DNA from: a virus
Lineage: Duplodnaviria; Caudoviricetes
DNA: 58,443 nt
Virus record (IMG/VR): IMGVR_UViG_3300020151_000200
Location: 1-58,443 of that record
Strand: one strand, 5' to 3'
The notes under the pieces: generated by a model
What the model saw: the letters and a program-made list of their open reading frames with translations, nothing else
Told to the model about the DNA's origin: nothing
Database searches by the model: none
Program-made: the position numbers and the translations under genes
Shown here: in pieces, positions 373-58,382 of the stretch
Position numbering within the stretch: position 1 is the stretch's first letter
Layout: each line of letters begins with the position of its first letter

Positions 373-391
373 GTAAATATGGTGTACTATG

Positions 392-404: not shown

Positions 405-427
405 ACTATAACTTAAAATATTTTATT

Positions 428-934: not shown

Positions 935-937
935 GCT

Positions 938-2551: not shown

Positions 2552-2553
2552 TT

Positions 2554-2865: not shown

Positions 2866-2875
2866 ATAATAAACA

Positions 2876-14694: not shown

Positions 14695-14921
14695 TGAGTT
14701 CTGTTATTAGAAAAATAAGTATAGGCACAGACTATAAAAATGACGCAATGCATTACTCTGTAGGCCAAAACGTTTACGGGGGCCATGCAATATGTAATAT
14801 TATATTTGACGATAATGACACATCGTATAATATATATATTAAAAAAGAAGATGAAGTCATGCCATGGAAGAAGTTTAATTCTAATATGGCTATTTCAGTT
14901 GAATACGATTTAGAATATTAA
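14694..14921 (+). CDS. Hypothetical protein
   Basis: 75 aa, IRKISIG.DYK.DAMHY.VGQ; coupled on both sides. Confidence 0.7.
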   Translation: MSSVIRKISIGTDYKNDAMHYSVGQNVYGGHAICNIIFDDNDTSYNIYIKKEDEVMPWKKFNSNMAISVEYDLEY

Positions 14922-37600: not shown

Positions 37601-40600
37601 GTTTAATATAGATGATAATACATTGGTAATATATAAACCAAATGCTATTAAAAATGGACATACAAGCACTGGATCACATGAGGTATTGCATACTGTATTG
37701 TCTAAAGCATTTAAAAACAATCAAGAGGAGGCAAATAAAAACGGTATAAAATTACTTGAATATTTAAAAACAGCCCAACCATCACTTTATGCAGCGGTAG
37801 AAGAAAGAATGAAAGCTTACACGCCTGATTATGCCGCTTATGGAGAGGAAGTATTTAATGCGCTTTCAGATTCTTTTAGTGATGGGAAAATACCAAATGA
37901 CGATGTATTTACCCAAATATCCAAAGTAATTAATAAAATAACTAAAGGTGCGTTTGGAACATCTTCAACATTTGATATTAAAAATATTAGCACGGATTCC
38001 GGAAAAGCTTTATTTGATACAATAAAAGCATATAGTCAGAAAGCCGGGGCTAAAAAAACTAAGTCCGGTCAAAATATAAGATTTATTTATTCTGATACAG
38101 AAGATAAGGCTGCAGAGGGAGCCCCTGCTACTGGATTTAAAGCTTCAAAAACTAAGGTTGCTGAAGTTCAAAAAAAGATAGATGATTTAGAAGATCAATT
38201 AGATAATGGAGAAATTGATTATGAAGATTATGAAAGTAGACTTAAAATATTTGAGGCGGATTTAGCAAAAGCAAAACTAACTCCTGAAGAAGCTCCAAAA
38301 CCCGAGGTTAAAAAAGTCGAAGTTTCTGAAGAGGAAGCAGATAAAGAAATAATAAAAAACGAAAGATCATCATTATCATCAGACAAAGTACAAAAAATAT
38401 ATGATGAAAAAGGATTAAATGGAGCACAAGACATTATAGATTTATTTAAACCTATTACCAAGAAATTAGTAAACAGAAGAATGGATGCTCCAGGTTTTGA
38501 CAGAGAATTATTAACTGACGAAATAGAAACCGGCACAGGTGGTATTTTAGATTTAATAAGCAAATACAAACCTGAAAGCGGAATACCTTTGGCCGCGTTT
38601 ATTAATAAATATTTACCTGTTAGAGCTATTGCTGCATCTAGGAGAGTATTAGACAAAGACTTTAGCAAGGACGTTACAGAAGAAAAAGGTTTAATAGCTG
38701 AAGAAACTGCATCTGAGACAAAAGAAAAACCAAAATATAAGAATGCATTAGAATCAAATGTTTTTGAGCCAGATGTCTTAAAAACGCTATCTAATAAGAT
38801 TATCTCCGTAACAAGAACATTAAAAAATAGAATTGATGCTCCTATAACCTTAAATAGAACTGTTACTCCATTAATTAGCGAAATTAGAGATGAAGTTGGC
38901 AGGTTATTAGACATTGACGTTAAAACTGCGATGGGGGGTAAAAAAGATGATCAACTTAAAAAATGGTTGTTAAAAAATAAACGTTATGTTTTAGAAAACA
39001 TGACAACCACATGGTTAATGGGTAAAGATGGAGTTGGCGGAATGCCACAAGCAATACAAAAACAAATTGATGGAAAGTGGGTTAGTTATCCAGATTGGGT
39101 TGGCAAAAAAATTGATAGAGAAAAAACAACAACAGATCAAGCAGGTAGAACATCAGGAGCAGAGTTAGTTAGACGTTTACCTAATGTAAATAATAATGTT
39201 TCTAATGAAGTTTATTTAGCACAAGTATTAGAGCCTAGTGGCAATCCGATTAGAGGTAGAAAAGAATCCTTAGCTAAAGCAGTTGCTGAAGAATCAGCAT
39301 TTGATATTATCAATAATGATCTTGAAAATGAGGGGCCTATATTTGAAGCTTTATCAACAAATCAGCAAAGATTAGGGTATGAATTAACTAATGCTTTTGC
39401 TGTTGAAATTGCTAAACAATCTGAAAGAGGTAATATTAAATTCTCTAAAACAAATGTTAATGCTGTAGATAAGATTGGAACTGAATTTTATAATTTTTAT
39501 AAAGATTTAGACACAAATAATAAAGCATTAGTATTTAATTATTTAGATAATAGAGAATTTAAAGGTATTGATGATAATATAAAAAATGAATTAGACGATA
39601 TATTAAATAGGTGGGAAACAGCCTACATTAATAATTCTGATAAAATATTAAATAAAATTAATATTGAAAGAAGAAAAAAATTTAAAGAAGAATATCCAAA
39701 AGTAGAAAGTTTTAATAAATATTTTGAAAAAGAAAAAGAAGATATTAGGGTTTCAAAAACAGCTGCGTTAGGATTATCTAACACGGGATTAAACTTTATA
39801 AAAAATAACCAAGAAGAAATAAGCGAAATACAAAATTATGCTTTTAATAATATAAAAAAAGAGGTAAATAATGCTAAAACAGATAAAGAAAAAACGGAAC
39901 TTGTAGATAATTTCTTAAGAACTTATAGAGCTGTATTTACAGGAGGCGAAAAAGGGTTATGGTTTGTTGGCAGCAATAGCGAATTGTTAAAAAAATTAGA
40001 AAACGAAATTAAAGACTTTAAAGATTTAGGTTATAAAATAAAACAAATTGGCAAGAATGGTATAATTGTTGATAAAAATGGTATTAATCCAACATATGTT
40101 GAGGAACAATCAACAAAAACTACAGATATAAAAGGTATAATAGAAAATGGAATAGATAGTTTAAATAAAAATAGATCTATACAAAGTGAAACTTCATTAA
40201 ATACTATAATGACTTTTTCAGAGGCTATTAAAAATTCTGGTATGTCTCCAAAAGCAAAAGCCCTTGCGATTATACTTATGAGGACTAGCACATATTCTCC
40301 TTTAAGAACATTAGCTAAGGTTGATTCTATAATATTAGATAAAAGTAAAAAGAATACAGATGATTACACTTGGGAGCATGTTATGCCCGTAGATGAACTT
40401 GTTAGAAATATTATGTCTTATGCGTTAGATTTACCTTTCGCAGATAAACCTGTAACAACCAAAGAAAACTTAAAAACTTTATTAGGGGAAAGTAAAATAT
40501 CTCTTTTGCCTAAAAATATTAATAATATATTAAATACTTTGCTTAAAAGTCAAATGCCTTCTAATTGGAAAATGGGAGATAATATATATGAAGCTCGATA

Positions 40601-43600
40601 TTTTAATCAAAAAATATTAGATATATTAAAAACTAATGGTATTGACTTAAGGCCATCTGATTTAACAATACTAAGCGGAGAAAATGGCGGTATTACGGAA
40701 ATTGACTTTGAAGCAAGAAAAAATGCATTAAATATTAGTAATAGTCAAGAAGCAACTATAAAATCTTTAAAACCTTCAAAAACACTAAAAGGTATTTCTG
40801 TTTTTGATTTTGATGATACTGTTGGATTAACGAAAGGTAGTGTGCTATACACAATGCCGGGTGATCAACCAGTTTACCACGGCGCTCCTAAAGGAAAAGA
40901 TGTTACAAAAATCAGTGATAAGGGAGTTAAGTTTTTTGCTACAGATATAAGAGAAGCAAATGAATATGCCAGAATGAATTCTGGTACAACACAGCAATTT
41001 GTTATAAATAATTCTCAAGTTGTTGATGAAGATGTTGCTATAAATAAAATGAAAGAATTGGGTTTAACCCCAAAAAATAATGAATTTGAGATAGATGATG
41101 TTTCTTTTTATGAGTTAATAGACATACGCTTTGAGGAGTCATTAAGCAAAGCGGATATAACAAAATTATTTGACGCTCTAAAAAAAGACAATATAAAAGC
41201 TATAAGTTACAGTGATGGAGCCCAAGTTAGCGGTAGGTTTACAACAAGTATTGCGGTAATTGATACATCTATAATATCTGAGCCTAAAAAATTAAACGCA
41301 GAGGAGTTTGCTAAAAATGGATCTAAACTTTTGGAAGAAGGTGCAGTATTTGATTTTTCTGAATTTAGCAAGGTCGTAGACGGCAAACCTGGGCCTATGG
41401 TTGAAAAAATGAAGAAGATGATTGGTAAATTTGGACCAGATAATTTCTTTATTCTTACGGCTCGTCCTGCTAATGCAGCAGTACCTATACACGAATTTTT
41501 ATCATCAATAGGTATTGATATCCCGTTAGAAAACATAACAGGATTAGGCAATAGTACAGCCCAAGCAAAAGCGGATTGGATGACTGCGAAAGCAGCAGAA
41601 GGATATAATGATTTTTACTTTGCTGACGATGCTCCACAAAATGTAGAAGCCGTTAAAAAAGCTCTAGAGGTTCCTGGTATAACTTCAAAAGTGCAACAAG
41701 CACGTCTTAAGTTTTCTTTAACTTCTAAACAAGATTTAAAATGGAAGCAAGGAGATGAAGATTTATCAACAAAATTTACAGTTGGCAATATAGATTATAG
41801 AATTTCTATGATTGAAACAGCATACATGGAATATGACGACGATGTACAAAAAACATTATTTGATTTAGTAGAAAAAAATGGCCTCGACGAAGAAACAACT
41901 ATAGCCGCTTATGACGGGGAAGCATACAACTTAGAATTTTGGGATAAGAAAAAAGGCAATGGAATAACTGGTTCTGGTAATGCAGCTGAAGTATTTGGAA
42001 TAGTAATAAATGGAGTGGCGGACAAAGTTAAAAAGAAAAATATTGAGGCATTAGTATTTACGGCAAAAGAACCTAGCAGAATTAAGTTATATAATTCAAT
42101 GGCAGAAGTTGTCGCTAATAAATTAGGATGGGGTGCTTATTATAAAGATGGTGTTTATATATTAGCAAAAAAACCTAAAACAATTGGAGCTACAACTGGA
42201 GTAGGAAGCTTAAAACCCGTTCAAGACGTTTTAAAAGTAGTTGACATTAAATCACCTATCCAGCAAAATAAAATTAAGTTTAGTAAAACCATGTCTGATG
42301 ATTTTAATAGAATCATTGAAGAAAATAAAGGAGTAGAAAGTTATAAGGTATTCTCTGATATTACTGCAAGAAGAAGAGGTATAAAGAAAAATAGATTTGA
42401 CTTATACGTTCCACCATCTGCAGCGGACTTTGAATTATTACTTTACAATTTTATGGGTAAAGGAGAGTTAGGTGAAGAACAAAAGAAATTCTTCCAGGAT
42501 GCTTTAATGACTCCATATATAAACGGGGTTGATATGATGGATGCGGTAAGACAATCTATTAAGAGAGAATACAAAGCATTGTTAAAATCGTTTCCTGAAG
42601 TTAAAAAAGAACTTGAAAAGTTAACTCCTAATAAAGACTTTACATATGATCAAGCAATGCGAGTTGCAATATGGAGTCAATATGGTACGGAAATTCCTGG
42701 GTTATCTCAAAGAGACGTAACTTATTTAACTGATCTTATTAATAATGATCCAGAACTTGCTGCATTTAAAGACGGATTAATAGTGATGGGTAGACAAAAA
42801 GATGGGTGGTTACCTCCAGGTACTTTTTGGGACTCTGATACTATTGTTTCTGACCTATATAATATAACAGAAGGATCTGGTAGAAAGAAATTCTTAGCAG
42901 AGTTTATTGAAAACACAGAAAATATTTTTGGCAAATGGGAAGACGGCAGATTAGTTGGTCCTAATATGAATAAAGTAGAAGCTGTTTACGGAACAAACGT
43001 TAGAGAAGCGTTAGAAGATTCTATATACAGAATGATAAACGGTAAGAATAGAAGCTTTGGGCAGGATAAAGAAACAACCGCATGGAGTAGCTGGGTGAAT
43101 GGTTCAACAGGAGCAATCATGTTCTTGAACACTCGTTCTGCTGCATTGCAGATGCTAGGGGCAGTTAACTTTTTAAACTGGAGAGACAACAATCCATTCA
43201 ATGCTGGTAAAGCGTTTTTAAACCAACCACAATACTGGAAAGACTTTGCTCGTATATGGAATTCAGATAAGCTAAAAGAAAGACGTGGGGGATTAAGAGA
43301 AGATGTTGCTTCTGCTGAGATTGCTAATGCCGCAGCTGGAAGTAAAAATAAAGTAGTTGCGGTAACATCGTATTTATTAAAGATTGGATATACGCCAACA
43401 CAATTAGCGGATAGTTTCGCTATTGCTTCTGGAGGTGCTCCTTTCTATAGAAATAGAATTAACTCTTATTTAAAAGAAGGGTTAACAGAGCAAGAGGCAG
43501 AGTCAAAAGCATGGCAAGACTTTTCTAAAGTATCTGATGAAACACAGCAATCAGGCGATCCAAAAGATATATCAAAGCAGCAGTCAAGTAGCGCAGGTAG

Positions 43601-44549
43601 ATTACTATTAGTATTCCAAAACTTTACAATGCAGCAATCCCGTATCGTTAAGAAAGCTGTATTAGATCTTAAAAATGGTAGAGGTGATGCTAAAACTAAT
43701 ATAGCTAAAATAGCTTATTACTTAGCGGTACAGAATATAATGTTCTCTACATTACAACAAGGTTTATTCGCTGTTATGTTTGATGACGATGATGATGAAG
43801 AAAAAAAGAAAAAGAAAAAAACCGATGCAGCTATTGATGTTGCAAATGGAGTACTAGATAGTATACTTAGAGGTACTGGTTTTGTTGGGGGTGTTGCAGC
43901 AACATTAAAGAATACTGTAGTTAAATACCTTGAGGAAAGGGCAAAAAAACAAAAAGCAGAATATGCTAAGGTTGTTCTTGAAGCAGCAAATATGTCTCCC
44001 CCAATTGGATCTAAACTAAGAAAAACATATAGTGCGTTACAACAAACTAAATATGATAAGGACTTAATAGAAGCAAGAGGATGGGGAGTTATGCAAGATG
44101 GTAGAGTTCACTTAGGCCCTATGTACTCTGTAACAGGAAAACTTGTTGAGGTTGGAACTAACTTCCCTATGGACCGATTAGTTAATAAGGTTGAGAATGT
44201 ATCACAAGCCTTTAATTCTGAAAATACTGCTGTGCAAAGACTTGCAACAGGAATGGGTTATTCACCTTGGACAGTTGGTATTGAAGGAACAAAAGGAGAT
44301 ATACTTATAAAAGAAACTGCTAAAGCAAAACGAAAAGAAGAGGGGTTAATTAAAGCTAAACAAACACGAAGAGAAAATGCTGAAAGATTAAAAGATAGTA
44401 TTAGAGGTTTATCAATACCAGAAAGAAAAGCGTACAGACTTAAAGTAGCCTTAGAGAAAAGAGAAAAGAGAAAAGAAAGAGCTTTAGAAAAAAGAGAGGA
44501 AAGACGTAAGAAATTAGAAATGTTCAAAAAGTTAAACGCAAATGAATAG
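34668..44549 (+). CDS. Giant multidomain (polyvalent) virion or ejection protein
   Basis: 3293 aa. HEVLH zincin at 37677, sigma-like segment at about 38430-38650, WEHVMP at about 40370, HAD motifs DFDDT/ILTARP/FADD, nested YHG ART-like domain, helical C-terminus. Confidence 0.85.
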   Translation: MLEYELNGKIYTEEDLIKAAGGKDKLPAYIKSKGFKPASKKTKQPAKLDERFGEDVYKKTFGFENPAKDQFSEINKTKKKKPVVKKWNEVVTWEDLKAEETSVAENLQKRVARFGLTPEEKVFGVNRITLRGDKKQQLEHVVDPSGISTGMYDLPEVVVGADASKEELIASAKILNDYIGKYGNKDYIQKVKKENPNLVRDAEQKIQAPTRPWETKVKEYNEDLISEFKNKEESIKSRLRANSGYMSASQRKYIDAVKPTKKDFDSPEKYNLYEYWKKTGQIQLPSEVKLEKFIKEKNDNYRVSKSAELMSDAPQEQRTMLLALESEREDKAIEGKVKLSVESDELDKAGKALSEKIAKFQKTPPTKQEYDEIQKEYFALQNRSNAYNKEALALNRDFNNIKAVSEAASKDYSRLNQTGSLLKQTALGIGGGIMDISTTLMAAADTANPLPYSIKKNLLKETLLDPIYSEQKAASKELESYQRDLQIKDIKSMKDFGRWGAGILTQMPSSMAMAVTGEAALPLFFLSGYGSKQYEIASLQESALSRLQYNADQINKGLVAAEDMADVQKQIASDKKTLNISEGAKLTSQVLAGAAEVLLEKYGTLGIIKQTDNILRAIPPQEIKRQLKVIGKEMGKSAGVESWTEGLTQLANNFGDIHLLGQDKNYFDGVPDAMAGGAFMGPGFAAMGGAGTVSNNITKAVVSELTSKEEFKARNRKLDEIKKLTGLEDITGLTKKDLNKLTLQPPVKKAVEELIDQIDGEDLRVLDRLGKDFSMEDAKKVGDLNQKLRKITKDWNEASKTVGIDDAQLRSLKEYYQKQYNEVFAAREAMLTDKQLTGKNKKENAQKRIIFEATAGYGLYNYRLTRKTYLEKLAGFDKLSSEEKQKYNDLALSELNQDATMDQLSNKEVDSKARELYAGEEIGKQLDRDIQAANDFSTELGLNIKVETVNSEKELLEKYDKIIDEEELNDLLSGKTNGFNIDDNTLVIYKPNAIKNGHTSTGSHEVLHTVLSKAFKNNQEEANKNGIKLLEYLKTAQPSLYAAVEERMKAYTPDYAAYGEEVFNALSDSFSDGKIPNDDVFTQISKVINKITKGAFGTSSTFDIKNISTDSGKALFDTIKAYSQKAGAKKTKSGQNIRFIYSDTEDKAAEGAPATGFKASKTKVAEVQKKIDDLEDQLDNGEIDYEDYESRLKIFEADLAKAKLTPEEAPKPEVKKVEVSEEEADKEIIKNERSSLSSDKVQKIYDEKGLNGAQDIIDLFKPITKKLVNRRMDAPGFDRELLTDEIETGTGGILDLISKYKPESGIPLAAFINKYLPVRAIAASRRVLDKDFSKDVTEEKGLIAEETASETKEKPKYKNALESNVFEPDVLKTLSNKIISVTRTLKNRIDAPITLNRTVTPLISEIRDEVGRLLDIDVKTAMGGKKDDQLKKWLLKNKRYVLENMTTTWLMGKDGVGGMPQAIQKQIDGKWVSYPDWVGKKIDREKTTTDQAGRTSGAELVRRLPNVNNNVSNEVYLAQVLEPSGNPIRGRKESLAKAVAEESAFDIINNDLENEGPIFEALSTNQQRLGYELTNAFAVEIAKQSERGNIKFSKTNVNAVDKIGTEFYNFYKDLDTNNKALVFNYLDNREFKGIDDNIKNELDDILNRWETAYINNSDKILNKINIERRKKFKEEYPKVESFNKYFEKEKEDIRVSKTAALGLSNTGLNFIKNNQEEISEIQNYAFNNIKKEVNNAKTDKEKTELVDNFLRTYRAVFTGGEKGLWFVGSNSELLKKLENEIKDFKDLGYKIKQIGKNGIIVDKNGINPTYVEEQSTKTTDIKGIIENGIDSLNKNRSIQSETSLNTIMTFSEAIKNSGMSPKAKALAIILMRTSTYSPLRTLAKVDSIILDKSKKNTDDYTWEHVMPVDELVRNIMSYALDLPFADKPVTTKENLKTLLGESKISLLPKNINNILNTLLKSQMPSNWKMGDNIYEARYFNQKILDILKTNGIDLRPSDLTILSGENGGITEIDFEARKNALNISNSQEATIKSLKPSKTLKGISVFDFDDTVGLTKGSVLYTMPGDQPVYHGAPKGKDVTKISDKGVKFFATDIREANEYARMNSGTTQQFVINNSQVVDEDVAINKMKELGLTPKNNEFEIDDVSFYELIDIRFEESLSKADITKLFDALKKDNIKAISYSDGAQVSGRFTTSIAVIDTSIISEPKKLNAEEFAKNGSKLLEEGAVFDFSEFSKVVDGKPGPMVEKMKKMIGKFGPDNFFILTARPANAAVPIHEFLSSIGIDIPLENITGLGNSTAQAKADWMTAKAAEGYNDFYFADDAPQNVEAVKKALEVPGITSKVQQARLKFSLTSKQDLKWKQGDEDLSTKFTVGNIDYRISMIETAYMEYDDDVQKTLFDLVEKNGLDEETTIAAYDGEAYNLEFWDKKKGNGITGSGNAAEVFGIVINGVADKVKKKNIEALVFTAKEPSRIKLYNSMAEVVANKLGWGAYYKDGVYILAKKPKTIGATTGVGSLKPVQDVLKVVDIKSPIQQNKIKFSKTMSDDFNRIIEENKGVESYKVFSDITARRRGIKKNRFDLYVPPSAADFELLLYNFMGKGELGEEQKKFFQDALMTPYINGVDMMDAVRQSIKREYKALLKSFPEVKKELEKLTPNKDFTYDQAMRVAIWSQYGTEIPGLSQRDVTYLTDLINNDPELAAFKDGLIVMGRQKDGWLPPGTFWDSDTIVSDLYNITEGSGRKKFLAEFIENTENIFGKWEDGRLVGPNMNKVEAVYGTNVREALEDSIYRMINGKNRSFGQDKETTAWSSWVNGSTGAIMFLNTRSAALQMLGAVNFLNWRDNNPFNAGKAFLNQPQYWKDFARIWNSDKLKERRGGLREDVASAEIANAAAGSKNKVVAVTSYLLKIGYTPTQLADSFAIASGGAPFYRNRINSYLKEGLTEQEAESKAWQDFSKVSDETQQSGDPKDISKQQSSSAGRLLLVFQNFTMQQSRIVKKAVLDLKNGRGDAKTNIAKIAYYLAVQNIMFSTLQQGLFAVMFDDDDDEEKKKKKKTDAAIDVANGVLDSILRGTGFVGGVAATLKNTVVKYLEERAKKQKAEYAKVVLEAANMSPPIGSKLRKTYSALQQTKYDKDLIEARGWGVMQDGRVHLGPMYSVTGKLVEVGTNFPMDRLVNKVENVSQAFNSENTAVQRLATGMGYSPWTVGIEGTKGDILIKETAKAKRKEEGLIKAKQTRRENAERLKDSIRGLSIPERKAYRLKVALEKREKRKERALEKREERRKKLEMFKKLNANE

Positions 44550-44575
44550 AATAGGCACCATACCTAAAGTTGCGT

Positions 44576-44613
44576 AAAAAAGAAGGGGACCACATAAGTG
44601 AATCCCCTCTTTT
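44576..44613. terminator. Bidirectional terminator between the convergent arms
   Basis: A-tract, GAAGGGGA...TCCCCTC stem, then T-tract. Confidence 0.85.
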
Positions 44614-44614
44614 A

Positions 44615-44827
44615 TTATTCTGTTGTTTCCTCTTTTTCTTTAAGTTCTTCTTTTGCTTTTTCAGATATTAAATTTATAGCGTGTTCATAACCAGGCATTT
44701 CTTTTATTAATTGATAAACGCCAACTGACATAGTCTTGGTATTCTCAAGTTCGGTTAACATAAAATCTACTATTCGAGTTAAAGATTCTATCTTATTCCT
44801 CATCATTACTAATTCGTTTTCTTTCAT
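44615..44827 (-). CDS. Hypothetical protein
   Basis: 70 aa, coupled to the upstream gene. Confidence 0.7.
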   Translation of the reverse strand: MKENELVMMRNKIESLTRIVDFMLTELENTKTMSVGVYQLIKEMPGYEHAINLISEKAKEELKEKEETTE

Positions 44828-45387
44828 TTTTTTATTTTATAAAACATTACAAATACTATTCTACTCTCTACAAATTCATTAGGATATTTACTATGAAAGT
44901 AATTACAAGGATAAGATATCAATCTATTTTTTTTATGACCTATAATAGATTTTAAATCCCATAAATCAAGATCATTAGCATCCTCATTTAATAATCTATT
45001 TTGTTCTGCAAGACTAACATTTTCAAATCTATCCCCATGCTTTTTATGCTCCCAAAAAGCCGTGCCATTTAATCCTTTTTGTTTACAATCAGATATATAC
45101 AATACACAAGCTCTATCAGGTTGTTGTCCTTCTATTATAGAATCATTATGAATACGCCAATCACGATCTTGGCCTTCTTTAGCTTCACGCATAAAGCCTA
45201 ATATAGGTTCTATTCTATGACCCTCTAAATCCTCAAGTTCAAATTTTATAATTTGCATAATTGGGGCAGGGACTTCCTTAACCCAAAAGGATTTTCCAGG
45301 GGTTTTTACTTCCTGGAATTCATCCTTATTGGTTCGTAACAAATCAATTAAATTTATATCTAAAAAATCATCTTTTATATAGATCAT
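44824..45387 (-). CDS. 2OG-Fe(II) oxygenase superfamily protein
   Basis: RIHND (HxD), ACVLYIS, GTAFW, NRLISY, YFHS (distal His) and terminal R. Confidence 0.8.
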   Translation of the reverse strand: MIYIKDDFLDINLIDLLRTNKDEFQEVKTPGKSFWVKEVPAPIMQIIKFELEDLEGHRIEPILGFMREAKEGQDRDWRIHNDSIIEGQQPDRACVLYISDCKQKGLNGTAFWEHKKHGDRFENVSLAEQNRLLNEDANDLDLWDLKSIIGHKKNRLISYPCNYFHSKYPNEFVESRIVFVMFYKIKK

Positions 45388-47255
45388 ACCACTTCACAAT
45401 TACCACCACCGCAGGCAGCAGAGTCACTAAAATTTGTATTGTCTTGTATTTCAATTACTTTTGAAAGATCTACGTTGTGTAATGTAGACATCATCTGTTC
45501 GTATACTTCTTTAGTACAGTCTTCAAACGGCGTTTGCTTATATGTACCTCCGTGATAAGGCAATACAGATAAACCATTATAGTATTCTTTATTTGCCCAC
45601 ATCCATTCGCCAACGATTTTCCATTCATCATCACGCACAGAAACAGTGCAAGAAACGTTATGAGTGTTATTACCTTTGTCATGACCTTGTTTAACCCAAT
45701 CTTTAGAAATTAATTTAACTCTCTCTAACAAATCTAATGTTGATTCGTGTCGTGTTATGGCTCCATCTGGAGCTTTCTGAGGCACAGAAACAACTGCTTG
45801 TAATGTTGGATTAAAATATTCATCTTCGATCAGTTCTGGATGATTTATTGCAAGATAAGAATAGATTGCTTCATTCTTACCTAAACGCATACGGCGAATG
45901 TAATAATCGTTATGCCAAGCGTGAATACCACTAGACGTACCAAGCACAAGAGAAGTAGTGCCAGCTGGTTTAACAGCGGTAGTTCTTGCAGCTCTGTTAA
46001 TGTTGAGGGCAGCAGAAATAACGTTATTGGTTTCTTTAACAACTCTAGCGGCTTCTTCATAATCTAAACATTGTATATTGTGTTTTGATGCAATGCCGGT
46101 CATTGATACCCCAAGCAATGCATCTTTTTCTGTGTTTTTTCTCCATATATCTCTTAAGTAGTGAAAGTCTGAATACGATGCTTGCAATGTGCCAATGAAT
46201 GCTGCGGCAGATGCTCTGGCATTAAAGTCTTCTTGACTTTCAATATCAGCCATATTGATTTCTGTAAGATTACAAAACTGATATGGTCTCAAAGCAATCT
46301 CACAACAAGGATTAGTACCCCAATCTTTATCATTAGTAAGGTAAATACCAGGCTCACCAGATCCAGACGCCTCAATACGTTCCCATACTTTATCAAATGT
46401 TCTCTTATCAATCTTATGCCTTAACAATACTACAGAATTATTTGACCTACCTCTTTGCGGGTTATCTTCCCACCAATTACCAGCTTTACAATTTAACATT
46501 GCGTCTGAATCAAGATCAAACAAACTAATCATTGCTGCTCTACGAATACCACCAGCTAAAACTGCATCGGCGATATGACACTGAATATCATGGCACTCAA
46601 TATCTGTTAGTTTAGATCTATCATCTTTTTCACGTAGTACAGCTTCAATCTTTACCAGCGCAATTCTTAATGGTTCAGGGCCTGGTGCTTTACCTCCCGC
46701 AGTCAATAGTAAAGCTCCCTTAGCTCTTATATCAGAGAAGTCAAACTCTATATGTGAAGTTAACCCTCCGGTATAGGATTTAAACAAAGCCTTAACTGCG
46801 TCTGCCCAGCCAATTATACTATCCTGAACAACATACTTTTTCTTACGATTGTAATTAGGTTTTCTAATTTCAGGAAGTTTCTCAATGTGGTGGTTCTGGA
46901 CCGAATAACCAACGCCAGTCCCTCCAAGCAATAGAAACATAGTCTCAGAAAAACTATAAATACTATCAACAGGTAGGAAAGCACAGTTATAAACGCGAGC
47001 ATTATTAAGCTCAATAGCTTTACCACCAAACTGCAAGCTTCGCATCGAAGGTAAAACTTTTTTAGTAAATACAAAATTCTTATAAACTTGTTCAATTGAT
47101 TCTTTCATTGTGGGAAACTTTGCAGTGTGCATTTCCATATTGCGTGTTACTAACTCTTCCCAGGTTTCTCTTCTTTCTTTTTCCGGTAAATATTTAGCAT
47201 ACTTAGTGTATACCGTAATATCACTTAATATTTGCTTATCTAAGCTTAAACTCAT
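45384..47255 (-). CDS. nrdJ: Class II (B12-dependent, RTPR-type) ribonucleotide reductase
   Basis: YNCAF, TNPCCEI, FCNLTE, VKPAGT and C-terminal ACGGGNC. Start taken at MSLSLD; the track extends to 47282. Confidence 0.92.
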   Translation of the reverse strand: MSLSLDKQILSDITVYTKYAKYLPEKERRETWEELVTRNMEMHTAKFPTMKESIEQVYKNFVFTKKVLPSMRSLQFGGKAIELNNARVYNCAFLPVDSIYSFSETMFLLLGGTGVGYSVQNHHIEKLPEIRKPNYNRKKKYVVQDSIIGWADAVKALFKSYTGGLTSHIEFDFSDIRAKGALLLTAGGKAPGPEPLRIALVKIEAVLREKDDRSKLTDIECHDIQCHIADAVLAGGIRRAAMISLFDLDSDAMLNCKAGNWWEDNPQRGRSNNSVVLLRHKIDKRTFDKVWERIEASGSGEPGIYLTNDKDWGTNPCCEIALRPYQFCNLTEINMADIESQEDFNARASAAAFIGTLQASYSDFHYLRDIWRKNTEKDALLGVSMTGIASKHNIQCLDYEEAARVVKETNNVISAALNINRAARTTAVKPAGTTSLVLGTSSGIHAWHNDYYIRRMRLGKNEAIYSYLAINHPELIEDEYFNPTLQAVVSVPQKAPDGAITRHESTLDLLERVKLISKDWVKQGHDKGNNTHNVSCTVSVRDDEWKIVGEWMWANKEYYNGLSVLPYHGGTYKQTPFEDCTKEVYEQMMSTLHNVDLSKVIEIQDNTNFSDSAACGGGNCEVV

Positions 47256-47271
47256 ATTTATATTATTGTTT

Positions 47272-47457
47272 TTAATTATCAATTTCTAATGCAAAATCTA
47301 TAAATGGCAAGTATAATACATGCGTTTTAAAATCTACTTCCTCATATGTTCTTACACCAAATAATATTCCTGGATATACTCCTATAGAGAATGTCCAGTA
47401 CCTTCCTTGTGGTTCTTCTGGTAATGGTGTTGGTACAACTTCTTTTTTCTTTGTCAT
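47272..47457 (-). CDS. Hypothetical protein
   Basis: 61 aa, YPGILFG.R.Y...HVLYLPF. Confidence 0.7.
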   Translation of the reverse strand: MTKKKEVVPTPLPEEPQGRYWTFSIGVYPGILFGVRTYEEVDFKTHVLYLPFIDFALEIDN

Positions 47458-47459
47458 AA

Positions 47460-47636
47460 TTAATAATTGTTATTGGTTAAATTTAATTCCTCTTGTTTAT
47501 TTAATATGTCTTTATATTTTATTCTGCCTTTAATTTCAAATGACCATCTAATCCATTTATCAAATTGTCTTTCAGCGTATTTTTTTCTTGCTAATCTTTT
47601 CTCTTCTTGAGAATTAACTTCACGGTCTCTAAACAT
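47460..47636 (-). CDS. 58-aa hypothetical protein (not in ORF track)
   Basis: Manual translation MFRDREVNSQEEKRLARKKYAERQIDKWIRWSFEIKGRIKYKDILNKQEELNLTNNNY. Fills the gap. Confidence 0.5.
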   Translation of the reverse strand: MFRDREVNSQEEKRLARKKYAERQFDKWIRWSFEIKGRIKYKDILNKQEELNLTNNNY

Positions 47637-48037
47637 TGATCTTGATTTTGCGGTTTATATAATGTTCTTTTGTCATTCATTAAGTGCATTAGGTATTTAA
47701 ACATCTTCCAGCGTAAAGGAAAAGACTCATTAGCTCTACCTTTTGTTTCAATAATAAAGTCTTCGCCAATAAAATCAGGTGTATATTTTATATTAAGAAC
47801 TTTCTTATTACCTCTATTTATAAAATCACCTTTACCATTTGATTGCCGTTCATAACAATCATTTTTAAATAAAAAGCTAGGTAATAATTCAAATGATTCG
47901 TCTTCATATCTAAATTCTATTTTAGCATCTCTTAAAGACTTATACATAAACTTTTCAAGGCCAGAAGCAAAGGTAATGCCGTTATACATTACCTTTTTTG
48001 CAACTACTGGGCCTTTCTTTTTTGATCGTTTAATCAT
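47591..48037 (-). CDS. T7 endonuclease I-like Holliday junction resolvase
   Basis: FASGLE, YTPDF and IIETKG PD-(D/E)xK motifs. Confidence 0.85.
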   Translation of the reverse strand: MIKRSKKKGPVVAKKVMYNGITFASGLEKFMYKSLRDAKIEFRYEDESFELLPSFLFKNDCYERQSNGKGDFINRGNKKVLNIKYTPDFIGEDFIIETKGRANESFPLRWKMFKYLMHLMNDKRTLYKPQNQDQCLETVKLILKKRKD

Positions 48038-48390: not shown

Positions 48391-49275
48391 TTATAGTGTT
48401 GTTTTAATGTGATCGGTTAATGATGGTGCTGTTGAAGCTGCGTAATCTTGTTTAACAAATGTACCATTGACCATAGAACCTTGTCGGGACTTAATAACAT
48501 CATAGGCTGATACAACACACTCTTCAACTTTTAATCCTTCTAATGCGGCTAGATTGGTTAATACTACAATCATATCGCCAATAGCATCAATTAATTCAGA
48601 CTTATTATCTTTAAGTATTGCTCTTGCTAGTTCACCAGATTCTTCTTGTAATTTTATATACTGCGTTTTTGTATCGCCATTTGAATATATACCACGATTG
48701 CTTGCCCATTGCCTAATTAAGTCATATACATTATTAGGATCGAAAGTTAAAGGGTTAGTCGCAGTTGGCGCGGGTTCAGTATTATACATTTTATTAACTG
48801 CTTCAAATAATACTTTATTATATACATAACACGCTGTATTGCGGTACATTGACTCTCTGACGTTTGCCATTATTATTTTAACTAACTCTGGAGTTACAGT
48901 ATATGTTCCATAGCTTGTTGTAAATGTATGCCCTAAATTATCCATTAAAAAGCCTTTTAATTTGTTTACAGGAACATTAAATGTTGTTGTTTGATCTGTT
49001 ACGTTAGTGTACATAGTTTTATTTGATTTAAATTGATTAATAGGACTATTTCTTGCTTGATCATAAGAGCAGAGATCTTTTTTATATTTAAAAAATTCTT
49101 GCCATTGGTGTTCTTTATTCTCTATAAATTCTTTGTCATATGAAGATTCTAATATCTGAAATTCACCGTCTTTGTAACCTTGTTGCAATATGACCCTTTT
49201 ATAAATATTACGCGTCATTCCAATTTTTTTCCCTGGAATATGATAAATATAGTATAAATTCTTAGTTTTTTCCAT
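48391..49275 (-). CDS. Fusion of GIY-YIG-like N-terminus, middle domain and MazG-like pyrophosphatase
   Basis: YYIYHIPGKKIGMT...KR at the N-terminus; KLQEESGEL...DAIGD MazG motif at the C-terminus. Confidence 0.75.
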   Translation of the reverse strand: MEKTKNLYYIYHIPGKKIGMTRNIYKRVILQQGYKDGEFQILESSYDKEFIENKEHQWQEFFKYKKDLCSYDQARNSPINQFKSNKTMYTNVTDQTTTFNVPVNKLKGFLMDNLGHTFTTSYGTYTVTPELVKIIMANVRESMYRNTACYVYNKVLFEAVNKMYNTEPAPTATNPLTFDPNNVYDLIRQWASNRGIYSNGDTKTQYIKLQEESGELARAILKDNKSELIDAIGDMIVVLTNLAALEGLKVEECVVSAYDVIKSRQGSMVNGTFVKQDYAASTAPSLTDHIKTTL

Positions 49276-49286
49276 ATTTTTTTTAT

Positions 49287-50078
49287 TTAAACAGCAACCG
49301 GAGCCGAAATTACTGGTCCGTGCTTATAATCGTTAATTATTAATATTCCGTTATTGTACTCATAATCTGGTAAATCAAATGTTTCTTGCAATAAATATTG
49401 CATAACAGCACGAGAACTTGTTTTATAAACGTGAGCATCTACAATTTGAACATCTAGTTTATTAGGCTTATATCCGGTTACTTCCGCTACATATATAAGT
49501 ATCTGCGAGAATAAAGCGACGTCATAAGGTATACCCAAGAATAGATCACCTGATCTTTGAACAACAAACATATTTAGATTATCGCCATCAACAAAGAATT
49601 GGAAATACAAATAGCACGGAGGTAATTTCATATCTGTTAATTGAGCCGGATTCCATAAGCTTATAATGTGTCTGCGGCTGTCTGGATCGTCCATTATGCC
49701 ATTTAATAGATTGTGCATCTGATCTATATTTTGATCATTAAAATTACGCATTTGATGCCCATACACAGGCCCTAGATCTCCATTCTCATCTGCCCAAGCA
49801 TCCCATATCTTTACGCCAGCATCTCTGAATCTTTGTATATTGGTTTCGCCATTCATAAACCATTCAAATTCAGTTTTAAACGTTTTCTCAAACATTTTTC
49901 TACCAGTTAATAAAGGAAAGCCGTCGCCTAAATCAATACTCAAACTTGCATTGAAGATAGAATAACATCCGACGCCTGTTCTGTCGTGACGTTCAGTTCC
50001 AAATGCAATGCATTGTTCAAGTATATTTTTATATTGTTCTTCGTATCTACTTGTTGATAGTTTATTTAGTGATAGCAT
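49287..50078 (-). CDS. thyA: Thymidylate synthase (ThyA) homologue with altered specificity residues
   Basis: DRTG, WDAW, GPVYG, DSRR, PPC, QRSGD and DAHVY retained. Has PYD instead of PFN and PPCY instead of PPCH. Confidence 0.9.
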   Translation of the reverse strand: MLSLNKLSTSRYEEQYKNILEQCIAFGTERHDRTGVGCYSIFNASLSIDLGDGFPLLTGRKMFEKTFKTEFEWFMNGETNIQRFRDAGVKIWDAWADENGDLGPVYGHQMRNFNDQNIDQMHNLLNGIMDDPDSRRHIISLWNPAQLTDMKLPPCYLYFQFFVDGDNLNMFVVQRSGDLFLGIPYDVALFSQILIYVAEVTGYKPNKLDVQIVDAHVYKTSSRAVMQYLLQETFDLPDYEYNNGILIINDYKHGPVISAPVAV

Positions 50079-50337
50079 ATTTGTCGTAATAGTATGTGTA
50101 AAATTTATATAATTGTTTCCAGATTTCTACTTTCTTATATGCGTCAGGACTTATACTTATTTTTTTATTTATTTCAACAAGTAAATGCCAAGACGAGGTT
50201 GTTGATGGCTTAGGCGATATGTATATACCGTTGTTTATGCACCAAGAATAAGCTAATTGCTCTTTTATAGTAGGCACATAAAAACCCATGTCTATCTGAG
50301 TTGTTTTTTTATATCCGCTACCCATTATACTTCCCAA
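50062..50337 (-). CDS. Hypothetical protein
   Basis: 91 aa (start may be 50325); WCINNGI.I.P motif. Confidence 0.65.
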   Translation of the reverse strand: MGSIMGSGYKKTTQIDMGFYVPTIKEQLAYSWCINNGIYISPKPSTTSSWHLLVEINKKISISPDAYKKVEIWKQLYKFYTYYYDKYAITK

Positions 50338-52058
50338 GGTAATTTATCATCGCTAATCAGATTAGGATTATGTGGAACAAAACAACCAGAAGATAGATCC
50401 CATTTAAAGTGGCATTCAGCGCCATTCTCACCTAGGTTTTGAAACTTACACTTAAGTACTTTTACTTTAACAGTCTTCTCTTCATAGTTTCTATGAACTA
50501 ATAATCCGTGATAGGATGCATCATACCATTCGCCACCACCTTTAATATTATACATGGTTGGCTCTTCAATGTTACCTTTAGCATCCTTATACATTTTAGT
50601 TGGATGCGCAACAACAATAACCAGTACATCGTATTTCTTAGCAAAGATTTCTATTTGGCTTAAGTATTCTAATGTATAAACATTAACATCACCAGAAGCA
50701 TCTTGTGCTCTTACTTTGTTAAATGGATCTATAACCAAACATTTAATACCTTTACGCTTAACTAGCTCAGCTCCTTTACGTAGTACAGATTCTAACGTAT
50801 AACGCTCCATGTCAATAAAGAAATAATTATCATTAACATGATCCGCAATCTGATTCCACTTATCAGTTTTAATATCTGCTACAGTAGGCATACCTTGCCA
50901 AGTTTTACGCATTAACTTGTGAGCATGCAAATATGTAGGTGTATTCTCAGGTGATGCATATGCAGTCTTCCAACCATACTTTTCATTATATCCAACAATC
51001 ATTTGATCCACAAAATCAGATTTACCAGAAGACGGAATACCGGTAACAGTAATGAACTGACCAGTGTATGTAGAAAAAATACTATCAAAGTTATCCAAAC
51101 CAATTTGGAAACCAGGTTTGAAACCGTTTCTAACAAAGTCTGTAACCTCATCTTCAATGTCTTTAAACGTAGTAACGTTTTCCAACGGCACAGGCTTTGA
51201 TCTTGATATTCTTTGTGATAATGCTTCTTTTCCATATTTAAGTAAATATTCATTAGCGTCTTTACAATCTTCAAATGATGCTAAATAACAAACTTCAGCA
51301 CCTAATCTTCTAACTAATTCTGTTTGTAATGCTTGACCAGCTACATCTGAATCAACTGCAATAATAATCTTTGACTTGTCATCAAAGTAATCAATACAGT
51401 TATCTAAATATTCTAGATTATTAGATCCTAACGTTGCGCCGTTTGGCACTGATATTGCATTTGTGATTCCCGCTTCATGCAATGCGAGCACATCCATTTC
51501 TCCCTCAACAATAATACAATATTCAAAACCCACAATGCTGTTAATATTATAAAAAATCTTTTCAGCCCCTTTGTACAATTTGAAGTTTTTGCGTCCATCT
51601 CTGTATTTAATGTTTATTAATTGATCGCCAATAAAGTAATTGAAATGTATAGCATTTTCAGTTTTGCCGGTTTGAGGCATAAACTCTTTGCCTTCGGTTA
51701 TTTGTAGCTCATGTAAAGTTTCTTTAGAAATACCTCGTGTTTCAAACCATTTCACAATAGGTTCTGATAAAGGATACTCTAACCCAGAATCTAATACTGC
51801 ATCTCTTTCTGGTTTTACATATACTTTTTCGCTTTTGCCTTTTCTTTTATATGTATGTAATTGAAATGTTTTATTACAATTGTGGCAGGTACCAATACCT
51901 CGTTCCCAATCATAAGAAGCACATTTAGCTTTTTCATTCTTAGGTTTTCTATCTGATGAACATATAGGGCATACCCCTTGCGTCTTACCCTCTTCCAATT
52001 TGTATTGGTTAAAGTTATCAATAAGGAAACCATTAATTTCAGTTGTCTCTATAAGCAT
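50325..52058 (-). CDS. Primase-helicase (T7 gp4/Twinkle-like)
   Basis: Zn finger CPIC...CHNC, TOPRIM EGEMD/DSD/KDANE, Walker A GIPSSGKS, LVIDP, VAHP. Confidence 0.93.
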   Translation of the reverse strand: MLIETTEINGFLIDNFNQYKLEEGKTQGVCPICSSDRKPKNEKAKCASYDWERGIGTCHNCNKTFQLHTYKRKGKSEKVYVKPERDAVLDSGLEYPLSEPIVKWFETRGISKETLHELQITEGKEFMPQTGKTENAIHFNYFIGDQLINIKYRDGRKNFKLYKGAEKIFYNINSIVGFEYCIIVEGEMDVLALHEAGITNAISVPNGATLGSNNLEYLDNCIDYFDDKSKIIIAVDSDVAGQALQTELVRRLGAEVCYLASFEDCKDANEYLLKYGKEALSQRISRSKPVPLENVTTFKDIEDEVTDFVRNGFKPGFQIGLDNFDSIFSTYTGQFITVTGIPSSGKSDFVDQMIVGYNEKYGWKTAYASPENTPTYLHAHKLMRKTWQGMPTVADIKTDKWNQIADHVNDNYFFIDMERYTLESVLRKGAELVKRKGIKCLVIDPFNKVRAQDASGDVNVYTLEYLSQIEIFAKKYDVLVIVVAHPTKMYKDAKGNIEEPTMYNIKGGGEWYDASYHGLLVHRNYEEKTVKVKVLKCKFQNLGENGAECHFKWDLSSGCFVPHNPNLISDDKLPWEV

Positions 52059-52614: not shown

Positions 52615-53352
52615 TTAATTAAGGGTTTTAGTTAATAAAAATTGTTTGGGATCAAATCCCTCGGTTTCATAAAATAATTGGTAAGCGTCTACCGCTCGTC
52701 TGACTTTGTCTTCACCACTTAATAGGAACTTATCTGAACAATCAAATATACCTATCTGGTTTGTGGTTTTGTCTATTGCTATAAATATTAAGTCATAGCC
52801 AAATAATAATTTGTATATATATGCTTGACTGTCATAATTATATTTCTTTGCTGAATAAGGGAATGCTGATATGTCAGATGTTGTTTTTAAATCTATTACC
52901 AATTTATGGTCGTGATTAATTATATCAGCTTTGCCCTTCCACATAACATCAAATATTTCAGCAATACCTGGTGTTTCATATTCTATATTCAAACCTCTTA
53001 TAAGGTCTCTGCAGATATCATTATCTAATACTACATCCCGCATTTTTTCTATTTTGTCAACCTCATGTTGTAACAAACATATTTCACCGCCTGATAATTC
53101 TTTATACTTAGTAGTATTCCTGGTAGTAGCTTCTATAACTTTATATTTTTCTAACTTTTCAGGTTCTAATATTAAAGTATGAAAGTAACCACCAATTGCA
53201 AAATTAATGTTAGGAGGCTGAGGTTGCCTCAGTAGCAAAGGATTAGTTAATAATGTTTCTATATTAGAGTTGCTTAAATACTGTTTACCAAACTCTCCGT
53301 AATAGTCTTCATCATTTCTTAACCTTGCTAATATCTTCTCTTTATTAGTCAT
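52615..53352 (-). CDS. PD-(D/E)xK exonuclease (RecE/ExoVIII, DUF3799-like)
   Basis: LSNS, G..FH..ILEP, KGKAD, IDLKTT and Y..QA..Y motifs. Confidence 0.85.
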   Translation of the reverse strand: MTNKEKILARLRNDEDYYGEFGKQYLSNSNIETLLTNPLLLRQPQPPNINFAIGGYFHTLILEPEKLEKYKVIEATTRNTTKYKELSGGEICLLQHEVDKIEKMRDVVLDNDICRDLIRGLNIEYETPGIAEIFDVMWKGKADIINHDHKLVIDLKTTSDISAFPYSAKKYNYDSQAYIYKLLFGYDLIFIAIDKTTNQIGIFDCSDKFLLSGEDKVRRAVDAYQLFYETEGFDPKQFLLTKTLN

Positions 53353-53353: not shown

Positions 53354-53917
53354 CTATAAAGAAGTTAATATTTTTTCTGCTTCAGGAGACAACTTATATT
53401 TCTTTTTAATTGTGTCAATTGAACCGCCGTTTGTCATAAATTCTTTAGCTTTAGCAAATGCTACTTCATCTAAAACAGGGAGATTTTTATTGGTTTCAGG
53501 TTCTGCTTTGCCATGATCTGGATCTTGCGTGTCATCAATTAAGAATAGATTTCCTAATGCATACTTCTTACCATAACTTGATGCTGATCCAAATTTCTGC
53601 GGCATCTGCATACCTTTCTGATCTAAGTCTATACCAACAATTGCTGTTGCGTTAATTGAAGATAGATTGTCTGATATAGTCGCAGTTGATTCCAACATAG
53701 GGAATTGCAAAAAGTTACTTTCCAATAGTCTTTCGTTAATTGTTACTGACACATTTAATTCTAATAAGTACGGTTTAGTAGCTTCTAAGATATCTTCTGC
53801 TGACCTAAAATTGTACTTGCCAAATGAATTAAACCTAGATTTCTTAGATTTAAACTTAGTCTGTATGACTGCAAGTTTCTCGTTTAATGTTAATTCTTTT
53901 TCTTCTGTTTTTGCCAT
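53354..53917 (-). CDS. ERF-family single-strand annealing protein
   Basis: FNSFGKYNFRSAEDILEA and Q.FGSASSYGKKYAL..LF.IDD..D.D motifs. Confidence 0.88.
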   Translation of the reverse strand: MAKTEEKELTLNEKLAVIQTKFKSKKSRFNSFGKYNFRSAEDILEATKPYLLELNVSVTINERLLESNFLQFPMLESTATISDNLSSINATAIVGIDLDQKGMQMPQKFGSASSYGKKYALGNLFLIDDTQDPDHGKAEPETNKNLPVLDEVAFAKAKEFMTNGGSIDTIKKKYKLSPEAEKILTSL

Positions 53918-54010: not shown

Positions 54011-54775
54011 TTATAGGTAATCAATGACTTGTGAGGGATCTACCTTGTCAATTAATTTTTGAATTGCTTGCTTTTTTATCTCTGAAATTCTTACATAAGC
54101 ACTTGCCCCTTCGATTCCTAATTTGTCTGCAATATCATTAGCAGAATGTTTATCACAGTCTAATCCGTAGCTTAATCTTAATACTTCAAACTCGCGATTA
54201 TCTAAATGCTTTTTAAGCAAACTAGTTAAGTATAAATTCATTAGATCAACATTGTAAACTTCAGATTGATCTGGAATTTGGTACAACATGTTATCATCGT
54301 CTTCATCGTTAATTTGTTCATCAATGCTTAAGAATATAGAATTAAAAAACATTGCGACTAGTCTATGATCTTTACTGTTATCCTTACGTATTTCATTTAA
54401 CTTATGCTCTGGTATTTTAATACTACCTCTATTAATATCAATTGCACGTCTAATAGAGCCTTTAATTCTTTTTGATAGAAAAGATTTTAGTGTACTTTCT
54501 TTGTGATCGCTTTCTCTAATAGTAGCCCATTCAATTTTATCAACTGCTTGTATAAGACCGATTGATCCGCATTGTATAAGATCTGTAATATCTAATATAC
54601 CGCATGCTTCTGTTGTTGTAGAAAATTTCTTTGCAATGTTTTCTACTAATGGAAGATACCTGCAAATAAGATCATTTCTTAAATAATACTGGAACTCATC
54701 AGACATATTATCTTTATTAACTTGCTTTAGATCTTCTTTATATCGTATATAATTAGGGACGTTGTAACTTTTCAT
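54011..54775 (-). CDS. Phage sigma70-family RNA polymerase sigma factor
   Basis: Region 2: YLPLV.NIAKKF...DLIQ.G.IGLI.AVDK...RIKGSIRRAI. Region 4: L..RE.EVLRLSYGL...IA..LG....RISEIKKQAI.KL. Confidence 0.9.
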   Translation of the reverse strand: MKSYNVPNYIRYKEDLKQVNKDNMSDEFQYYLRNDLICRYLPLVENIAKKFSTTTEACGILDITDLIQCGSIGLIQAVDKIEWATIRESDHKESTLKSFLSKRIKGSIRRAIDINRGSIKIPEHKLNEIRKDNSKDHRLVAMFFNSIFLSIDEQINDEDDDNMLYQIPDQSEVYNVDLMNLYLTSLLKKHLDNREFEVLRLSYGLDCDKHSANDIADKLGIEGASAYVRISEIKKQAIQKLIDKVDPSQVIDYL

Positions 54776-57908: not shown

Positions 57909-58382
57909 TTATTTAGGTCTAGTTATTATACTTTCGTTTGCGTTTTTTACATTTACTTTTTCTGCTTCATAATAATTCCAATATGCTTCTACACTATTGC
58001 CGGGAACTTTGTATTGATCAGGCATACATTGAGGCATGGGGGTTGGCTCAACTTTAGTTACATTAGCCGGAGCTTTGCATAATGCACCGCTACATTTTAA
58101 TATAGTTAAATGTTTTTTGCCGTAACGTCTAGTATACTCATTGCCTAATGCAATCATATGGTCGTATAACCATATATAGTTAGACACAGACTCACGTACC
58201 CATATTGCTGAAGGATGATTTTTATGCGTTGCTTTGTAAGGAACATCAGCAACTTCACCATCAGAAATAATATGCGCGGTACATAATAGTTGTGCAGACT
58301 CAAGGATCATTTTTACTACATGCTTATTATACATATACTTAGCCGCTTGATTAGGGTCTTCAGATAAATAAAATATATTCAT
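57909..58382 (-). CDS. Pyrimidine-dimer DNA glycosylase (DenV-like family)
   Basis: MNIFYL..DP...A....KHVVKMILESAQLL.TAH...YK.TH.NHP...W motifs. Confidence 0.8.
   Translation of the reverse strand: MNIFYLSEDPNQAAKYMYNKHVVKMILESAQLLCTAHIISDGEVADVPYKATHKNHPSAIWVRESVSNYIWLYDHMIALGNEYTRRYGKKHLTILKCSGALCKAPANVTKVEPTPMPQCMPDQYKVPGNSVEAYWNYYEAEKVNVKNANESIITRPK

Follow-up and report, generated by a model that had tools for sequence, protein, structure and literature searches.

We analysed the complete 58,443-bp genome record of a Caudoviricetes virus (IMG/VR record IMGVR_UViG_3300020151_000200; 33% G+C, 67% A+T), referred to here as the window. The subject is an open reading frame (ORF) at positions 49287-50078 of the minus strand, which encodes a protein of the thymidylate synthase (TS) family, ThyA, together with a MazG-type gene directly downstream and a ribonucleotide reductase gene further downstream. 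The features of this locus are the following (aa, amino acids; dCMP, deoxycytidylate; dUMP, deoxyuridylate; 5mdCMP, 5-methyl-dCMP):

49287-50078 (-): ThyA-family enzyme, 263 aa, predicted dCMP 5-methyltransferase (5mdCMP synthase), from PF00303 and the residue map
49521-49523 (-): Asp186, codon GAC, at the position of E. coli N177, within QRSGDLFLGIPYDVALF; choice of dCMP versus dUMP
49611-49613 (-): Tyr156, codon TAT, at the position of E. coli H147, within LPPCYLYFQF
49614-49616 (-): catalytic Cys155, equivalent to E. coli C146
49623-49625 (-): Leu152, equivalent to E. coli L143, hydrophobic, three residues ahead of the catalytic Cys
49545-49547 (-): Asp178, equivalent to E. coli D169, where Asn marks 5-hydroxy-dCMP synthases
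49290-49319 (-): C-terminal tail HGPVISAPVAV, matching E. coli I258, A260, V262 and A263
48391-49275 (-): partner gene, 294 aa, with GIY-YIG-like N-terminal, middle and MazG/PRA-PH pyrophosphohydrolase domains; candidate dCTPase
49069-49257 (-): GIY-YIG-like domain, aa 7-69 of the partner, a weak assignment from VIA-align
48484-48741 (-): MazG/PRA-PH fold domain, aa 179-264 of the partner, from the predicted fold
45384-47282 (-): class II (B12-dependent) ribonucleotide reductase, closest to ribonucleoside-triphosphate reductase (PHROG 367, 6.7e-132)

The Pfam family PF00303 (Thymidylat_synt) spans the 263-aa ORF (residues 14-262, profile positions 1-265 of 266, E-value 1.4e-73), with a score of 247.7 bits against a gathering cut-off of 24.3. 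The best relatives of solved structure are bacterial thymidylate synthases (E-values 7e-60 to 1e-50), and public sources label the protein and its relatives thymidylate synthase. Among the NCBIfam models, TIGR03284 (thymidylate synthase) scores above its cut-off (205.6 versus 108.35 bits), while the closest equivalog, NF002497, falls below (251.8 versus 327 bits), as do the other PRK01827 models.

Residues were compared in an alignment of the query with E. coli ThyA, the Xp12 TS, T4 gp42 and RB69 gp48 (39%, 26%, 23% and 18% identity to the query, respectively); positions are given in E. coli numbering unless a residue of the query itself is named. The register is reliable because the published T4 gp42 numbers (C148, D179, D145, D171 and Y96) come out of it. 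The original prediction, made from the letters of the DNA, had placed an Asp where ThyA has N177 and had read the motif PPCY as a replacement of the His that follows the catalytic Cys. Both readings hold: Asp186 falls on N177 and Tyr156 on H147. The Asp attributed to T4 dCMP hydroxymethylase at the same site is also found, as D179 of gp42 aligns with Asp186. The ThyA hallmark Asn177, which selects dUMP, is not present in the query, whose signature reads L143, C146, Y147, D169 and D177.

The remaining catalytic and folate-binding motifs had been described as intact, and the residue map against E. coli ThyA agrees, tail included. R21, E58, W80, W83, Y94, R126, R127, L143, C146 and Q165 are retained, as are R166, S167, D169, G173, H207 and Y209 and all of the phosphate-binding arginines; in the query's own numbering the mapped sites include C155, D186, D178, W92, W95, E70, H216 and Y218. 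Tail residues I258, A260, V262 and A263 close the E. coli ThyA active site for hydride transfer, according to the available part of PMC6400193. Of the 12 residues within 6 Å of dUMP C5 (residue list taken from the available part of PMC13326640), eight are the same as in E. coli, the four changes being A142K, H147Y, C168G and N177D.

We then examined the conservation of these positions in the best 120 relatives listed in a collection of 5.8 billion proteins (68-92% identity to the query). The columns of Asp177, Tyr147 and Cys146 hold D, Y and C in all 120 (121 of 121 with the query), so the Asp and Tyr changes are not a matter of chance or of a sequencing variant. For the wider family, represented by the best 150 representatives of clusters at 50% identity, position 177 is Asn in 110, Asp in 35 and other or incomplete in 5. 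The canonical L/H/D/N signature is carried by 108 of the 110 Asn177 representatives, and in all 35 with Asp177 position 143 is Leu or Ile and 169 is Asp, position 147 being Tyr in 15, His in 11, Pro in 8 and Val in 1. Tyr147 is never paired with Asn177 in this set: the 15 Tyr147 rows of full span are all Asp177.

A FastTree phylogeny of 154 rows, from which six representatives with fewer than 220 aa in the aligned span were left out, places the query in a well-supported clade of eight rows, all L/Y/D/D, nested in a looser group of 22 rows of which 20 have Asp177. Switches between Asn and Asp at position 177 number 11 on the best tree and at least four when only well-supported branches are counted. 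Xp12, T4 gp42 and RB69 gp48 form long branches of unsure placement outside the query's clade. Across 152 rows, Asp177 occurs with a non-His residue at 147 in 31 and with His in 10, and Asn177 with His in 109 and with a non-His residue in 2; an independent-pairs test of this coupling had only four usable pairs (median p 0.5).

Published rules for Asp177 enzymes, cited here from the parts of the sources available, bear on the substrate. MetaGPA selected for phage DNA whose cytosines are all modified, 5-methylcytosine (5mC) being protected by TET2. In that work, positions 177 and 147 are the top two TS positions that separate modified from unmodified contigs, 147 ranking second and Asp177 lying on the modified side, and TS genes with D177 are enriched on contigs with fully cytosine-modified DNA (PMC8670742, 2021). 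The same source cites an N177D-type change as sufficient by itself to flip the pyrimidine preference of E. coli and L. casei TS. The Xp12 TS and five of seven metagenomic D177 homologues produced 5-methyl-dC (5mdC) in E. coli DNA, in assays that co-expressed the T4 gp1 kinase, and the commonest neighbours there were PRA-PH pyrophosphohydrolases, deaminases and DNA polymerase A (bioRxiv 10.1101/2024.12.05.627091).

Other rules bear on the product. Work on the ternary complex of T4 gp42 gives hydroxymethylases an acidic residue, Asp or Glu, at the third position ahead of the Cys, a Ser or Thr near the catalytic Tyr, two residues ahead of Tyr96 in gp42 numbering, Val in place of Trp83 and no C-terminal tail (PMC6400193). 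A hydrophobic residue 143 goes with a methyl rather than a hydroxymethyl product (PMC6400193, PMC13326640), and D169N marks the flavin-dependent 5-hydroxy-dCMP synthases (PMC13326640). On its sequence, the query is classed as a methylase by every published residue rule that we consulted.

The enzyme itself is likely to be a folate-dependent deoxycytidylate 5-methyltransferase derived from ThyA. In the proposed reaction, Cys155 would attack C6 of dCMP while Asp186, in place of Asn177, would take the cytosine N3/4-NH2 face and protonate N3, and Tyr156, in place of His147, would retune the adjacent hydrogen-bond network. The one-carbon unit of methylene-tetrahydrofolate would then pass to cytosine C5. 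The exocyclic methylene would be reduced by hydride transfer, as expected from the retention of Leu152, Trp95, Asp178 and the C-terminal tail, giving 5mdCMP and dihydrofolate. The idea of a natural dCMP-specific ThyA homologue agrees with every sequence test made here, with the published rules and with the assays, reported in the available parts of the sources, of other D177 homologues (PMC8670742; bioRxiv 10.1101/2024.12.05.627091; PMC13326640). The original prediction had left the product as either 5-methyl- or 5-hydroxymethyl-dCMP. The former is favoured because Leu143, Asp169 and the intact tail indicate methyl transfer, and the latter is disfavoured because of the Leu at 143, the lack of Ser or Thr beside Tyr94 and the kept tail.

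The partner gene begins 11 nt downstream of the ThyA-family gene on the same strand. Two Pfam families score above their cut-offs on its product, PRA-PH (26.3 versus 21.3 bits) and MazG (26.1 versus 22 bits), both with E-values of about 1e-5, and the PHROG match is to a MazG-like pyrophosphatase (1.6e-33). The predicted fold of aa 176-264 aligns in VIA-align with Z 9.7 to both 1yvw (root-mean-square deviation (rmsd) 2.8, 84 residues aligned) and 1vmg (rmsd 3.9, 82 aligned), and the mammalian DCTPP1/RS21-C6 dCTPases are among weak Foldseek rows, all with E-values above 0.02. In 80 related loci from IMG/VR, inspected with flanks of 6 kb on either side, a partner homologue on the TS strand occurs in 79, the lone exception being a contig that stops 466 nt past the TS gene; for 76 of these 79 homologues the start falls between -19 and +16 nt from the TS stop codon.

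The class II reductase lies 1.1 kb downstream of the end of the partner gene and matches NCBIfam TIGR02505 (RTPR) with an E-value of 7.1e-77, but its 259 bits are below the 340-bit cut-off. A triphosphate-type reductase would supply dCTP directly, so that a step from dCTP to dCMP would be necessary. Most likely, the MazG-type partner hydrolyses the dCTP made by the reductase to dCMP, which would both feed the methylase and drain unmodified dCTP.

A conserved two-domain N-terminal extension of the partner (48766-49275 (-), aa 1-170) is fused to MazG in 75 of the 79 related loci, the other four having just the MazG part of about 100 aa. By VIA-align of the predicted structure, the N-terminal domain is best matched by I-TevI (1ln0; Z 5.6, rmsd 3.2, 61 aligned). 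Five more GIY-YIG entries reach Z 3.2-4.8, among them PD-T4-3 (9u75, 4.8), UvrC (1ycz, 4.5) and T4 EndoII (2wsh, 4.0). The Pfam family MUG113 falls under its cut-off there (E-value 0.092). Invariant residues are Y11, K17, G19, T21, R27 and E55, with the second signature Tyr changed to Lys. The GIY-YIG assignment of these roughly 70 residues is weakly indicated and is a lead rather than a finding, and a fold search with the middle domain (aa 90-164) gave no credible match.

Several characterized systems resemble this locus in part. The engineered E. coli ThyA N177D and L. casei TS N229D share with the query the ThyA scaffold and the change of Asn177 to Asp. L. casei N229D has reportedly been combined with H199A, a second change to Ala at the His after the catalytic Cys; the query has a natural Tyr at this position, whereas N229D/H199A is a laboratory mutant with Ala. 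T4 gp42, which acts on dCMP and is partnered with the dCTPase gp56, shares the TS superfamily, the catalytic Cys and the Asp177 equivalent D179; however, it has Asp145, Ser94 and Val85 and no tail, where the query has Leu, Val/Pro and Trp and keeps the tail.

A further comparison is with the 5mC phages Xp12 (MT664984, TS coding sequence 45326-46195) and PaMx74. Their enzymes share with the query the ThyA fold, the catalytic Cys, Asp169, Asp177 and a non-His residue at 147, and both phages have a PRA-PH/MazG-family gene directly beside the D177 TS. The two enzymes differ from the query by their Asn143 and Pro147, by a long insert and by a C-terminus that diverges. The gene order in PaMx74 (26-3047) and Xp12 (44377-46980) is PRA-PH, TS (D177), deaminase, dihydrofolate reductase (DHFR), and Xp12 carries its own replication genes; we found no deaminase, DHFR or such replication genes in the query genome. 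The PRA-PH gene of Xp12 is recorded as "hydrolase (HAD superfamily)" and matches PRA-PH at 6.6e-15. The metagenomic D177 homologues of MetaGPA are, like the query, environmental phage TS proteins with Asp177 and an altered 147, with PRA-PH among their top co-localised domains (PMC8670742, available part). The homologues that were assayed were picked for a neighbouring deaminase, unlike the query locus, which has none (bioRxiv 10.1101/2024.12.05.627091, available part).

A number of observations weigh against assigning the query to 5mdCMP synthesis for phage DNA. The query does not group with the validated Xp12 enzyme (26% identity), whose branch is long and of unsure position, and the available parts of the published work hold no assay of any Tyr147 member. 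The Xp12 TS itself has Asn (Asn162) rather than a hydrophobic residue at position 143, which makes the residue-143 rule a tendency and not a law. Pfam and PHROG searches of all 72 ORFs found no deoxynucleoside monophosphate kinase, dCMP/dCTP deaminase or DHFR, and neither a DNA polymerase nor a DNA methyltransferase. Scans for Walker-A motifs (GxxxxGK[ST], two more permissive pattern sets and GxxxxGK) returned the helicase and chance-looking matches but no kinase. The published E. coli assays supplied a phage kinase by co-expression, so the host's own kinases may be limiting. No TS homologue is present in MW202828 or Flavobacterium phage elemoB, the phages nearest by terminase (63% and 45%, respectively); since these two nearest genomes in the collection lack it, the TS cassette is accessory. 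Finally, TCGA is strongly avoided genome-wide, with 22 sites against 96.7 +/- 8.5 in 100 shuffles that preserve dinucleotides. CATG is scarce too (76 sites versus 175 expected from base composition alone). The roughly four-fold under-representation of TCGA, with the CATG shortage, suggests restriction-site avoidance. The TCGA deficit is a sign of continuing pressure from at least one restriction specificity and is, in itself, neutral on the 5mC question.

The alternative that survives best is that 5mdCMP is made mainly for thymidylate supply, along a route from dCTP to dT in which a host enzyme deaminates 5mdCMP (or 5mdCTP) to dTMP (or dTTP) in an AT-rich phage, leaving little 5mC in DNA. We regard this as rather unlikely. 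The 67% A+T of the genome fits it, as does the fact that neither a canonical TS or ThyX nor a phage kinase taking 5mdCMP to the triphosphate was found among the scanned ORFs, and a published account of Xp12-type phages includes deamination of 5-methyl-dC nucleotides to dT nucleotides (bioRxiv 10.1101/2024.12.05.627091, available part). However, neither the genome nor the flanks of the 80 related loci showed a deaminase, the deaminases in the available published accounts are phage-encoded and occur alongside full 5mC replacement, and the enrichment of D177 TS genes on fully cytosine-modified contigs (PMC8670742, available part) points the other way.

It is also unlikely that the protein is mainly, or dually, a dUMP thymidylate synthase, an ordinary auxiliary gene of nucleotide metabolism despite Asp186. 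Its 39% identity to E. coli ThyA, the conservation of eight of 12 residues around C5, the TIGR03284 score above cut-off and the public annotation all speak for such an activity. Against these stand the published inversion of preference by N177D alone in the E. coli and L. casei enzymes (cited in the available part of PMC8670742), the fixation of D and Y in all 120 listed relatives and the failure to reach the cut-off of the closest equivalog, NF002497.

A dCMP hydroxymethylase with T4 gp42-like chemistry and a 5-hydroxymethyl-dCMP product would account for the shared Asp177, but is very improbable: Leu152 stands where Asp or Glu is expected, Pro104-Val105-Tyr106 offers no Ser or Thr, Trp83 is kept, the tail ISAPVAV is there, identity to gp42 is 23%, and neither a glycosyltransferase nor another hydroxyl-using enzyme was found in the genome (Pfam and PHROG, all 72 ORFs) or in the related loci. 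A flavin-dependent 5-hydroxy-dCMP synthase of the type of RB69 gp48 and DLP3 gp80 shares the TS superfamily and D177 with the query but is hardly credible, as those enzymes have D169N, L143E and flavin binding (PMC13326640, available part) whereas the query has Asp178 at the diagnostic site, Leu at 143 and 18% identity to RB69 gp48.

For the favoured reading, synthesis of 5mdCMP, the steps beyond the monophosphate would fall to the host. The Xp12-type partners (5mdCTP deaminase, DHFR and 5mdCMP kinase) were found neither in Pfam and PHROG scans of all 72 ORFs nor in the flanks of the 80 loci, where the only additions are helicase and sigma-factor variants, endonucleases (HNH or other) and class I reductases. 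With no kinase, DHFR or polymerase found, the host would be left to recycle folate, its kinases would have to make 5mdCTP from 5mdCMP, and its replicase would have to place 5mC in phage DNA. Entry of 5mC into the phage DNA is plausible; that virion DNA would resist restriction, as originally proposed, we only infer. What the sequences establish is the set of residues, its conservation and the pairing of the genes; the substrate, the product, the nucleotide taken by MazG and all steps after 5mdCMP are predictions.

A broader reading, possible but doubtful, is that a crAss-related freshwater lineage free of kinase and polymerase replaces all of its C by 5mC through a two-gene cassette. Its methylase (the Tyr147/Asp177 clade) would have arisen from ThyA independently of Xp12, and in its partner MazG would remove dCTP while the GIY-YIG-like domain would act like T4 EndoII and cut unmodified DNA, with host Cmk, Ndk and Pol III providing the rest. 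If so, wholesale 5mC replacement would be obtainable as a small portable module.

The kind of enzyme, the 177/147 signature and the pairing with a pyrophosphatase are already published, as the available parts of those sources show, and the finding opens no new kind of system. What is new is a ThyA-like Tyr147 clade that, as judged from sequence, is not orthologous to the Xp12 enzyme, and its setting in a crAss-related phage of 58 kb whose scanned ORFs yielded no kinase, deaminase, DHFR or DNA polymerase. If the assignment is right, the query and at least 120 relatives (68-92% identity) are mis-annotated as "thymidylate synthase", and the phages that encode them would carry 5mC-substituted DNA. 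Consequences would follow for restriction and defence interactions, for host prediction and for the behaviour of viromes in workflows that are methylation-sensitive or use nanopores. The assignment would also provide a naturally optimised ThyA-like dCMP methylase with Tyr147 to set against engineered N177D/H147 variants, and would mean that a methylase and pyrophosphatase pair can work without the deaminase, DHFR and replication genes of the Xp12 type.

A tblastn search of 50,697 phage records with the query and a D177/H147 representative gave nothing at or above 60% identity (best about 40%) and 18 kb of the window submitted to megablast matched nothing, so that no isolate phage with the Tyr147 clade turned up in these searches. 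The window or part of it is contained in contigs of 22 sequencing runs, the top three being freshwater metagenomes. Terminase, portal and a muzzle-protein domain tie the genome to crAss-like phages and to podophages of Flavobacterium and Cellulophaga. The window ORFs of at least 45 aa yielded no DNA polymerase; the first four entries below are the replication and recombination genes present, and two further genes follow them:

50325-52058: primase-helicase
53354-53917: Erf-like annealing protein
52615-53352: PDDEXK exonuclease
47591-48037: DUF1064 resolvase-like protein
54011-54775: sigma-factor-like protein
57909-58382 (-): T4 endonuclease V-like pyrimidine-dimer glycosylase domain (Pyr_excise, E-value 9.3e-7; PHROG 624, 7e-52)

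Adjoining the reductase is an ORF of 187 aa (44824-45387 (-)) that is DUF6445-like, under the cut-off in Pfam and with a PHROG match to "minor coat protein" (5.2e-12). We rejected it as a member of the cassette, as it occurs in 10 of the 80 loci and finds only DUF6445 or hypothetical Atlas clusters. Among the virion genes, the ORF at 30195-31844 carries the C-terminal domain of the crAss muzzle protein. Close by, and adjoining the virion genes, an ORF of 3,293 aa (34668-44549 (+)) has no Pfam or PHROG match and is a candidate for a crAss-type giant protein packaged in the virion or for an RNA polymerase. The window also encodes GroEL (514 aa, Cpn60 E-value 1.3e-56), GroES (86 aa) and a second GroES-like protein of 202 aa (9159-10963 (+) and 14921-15529 (+)).

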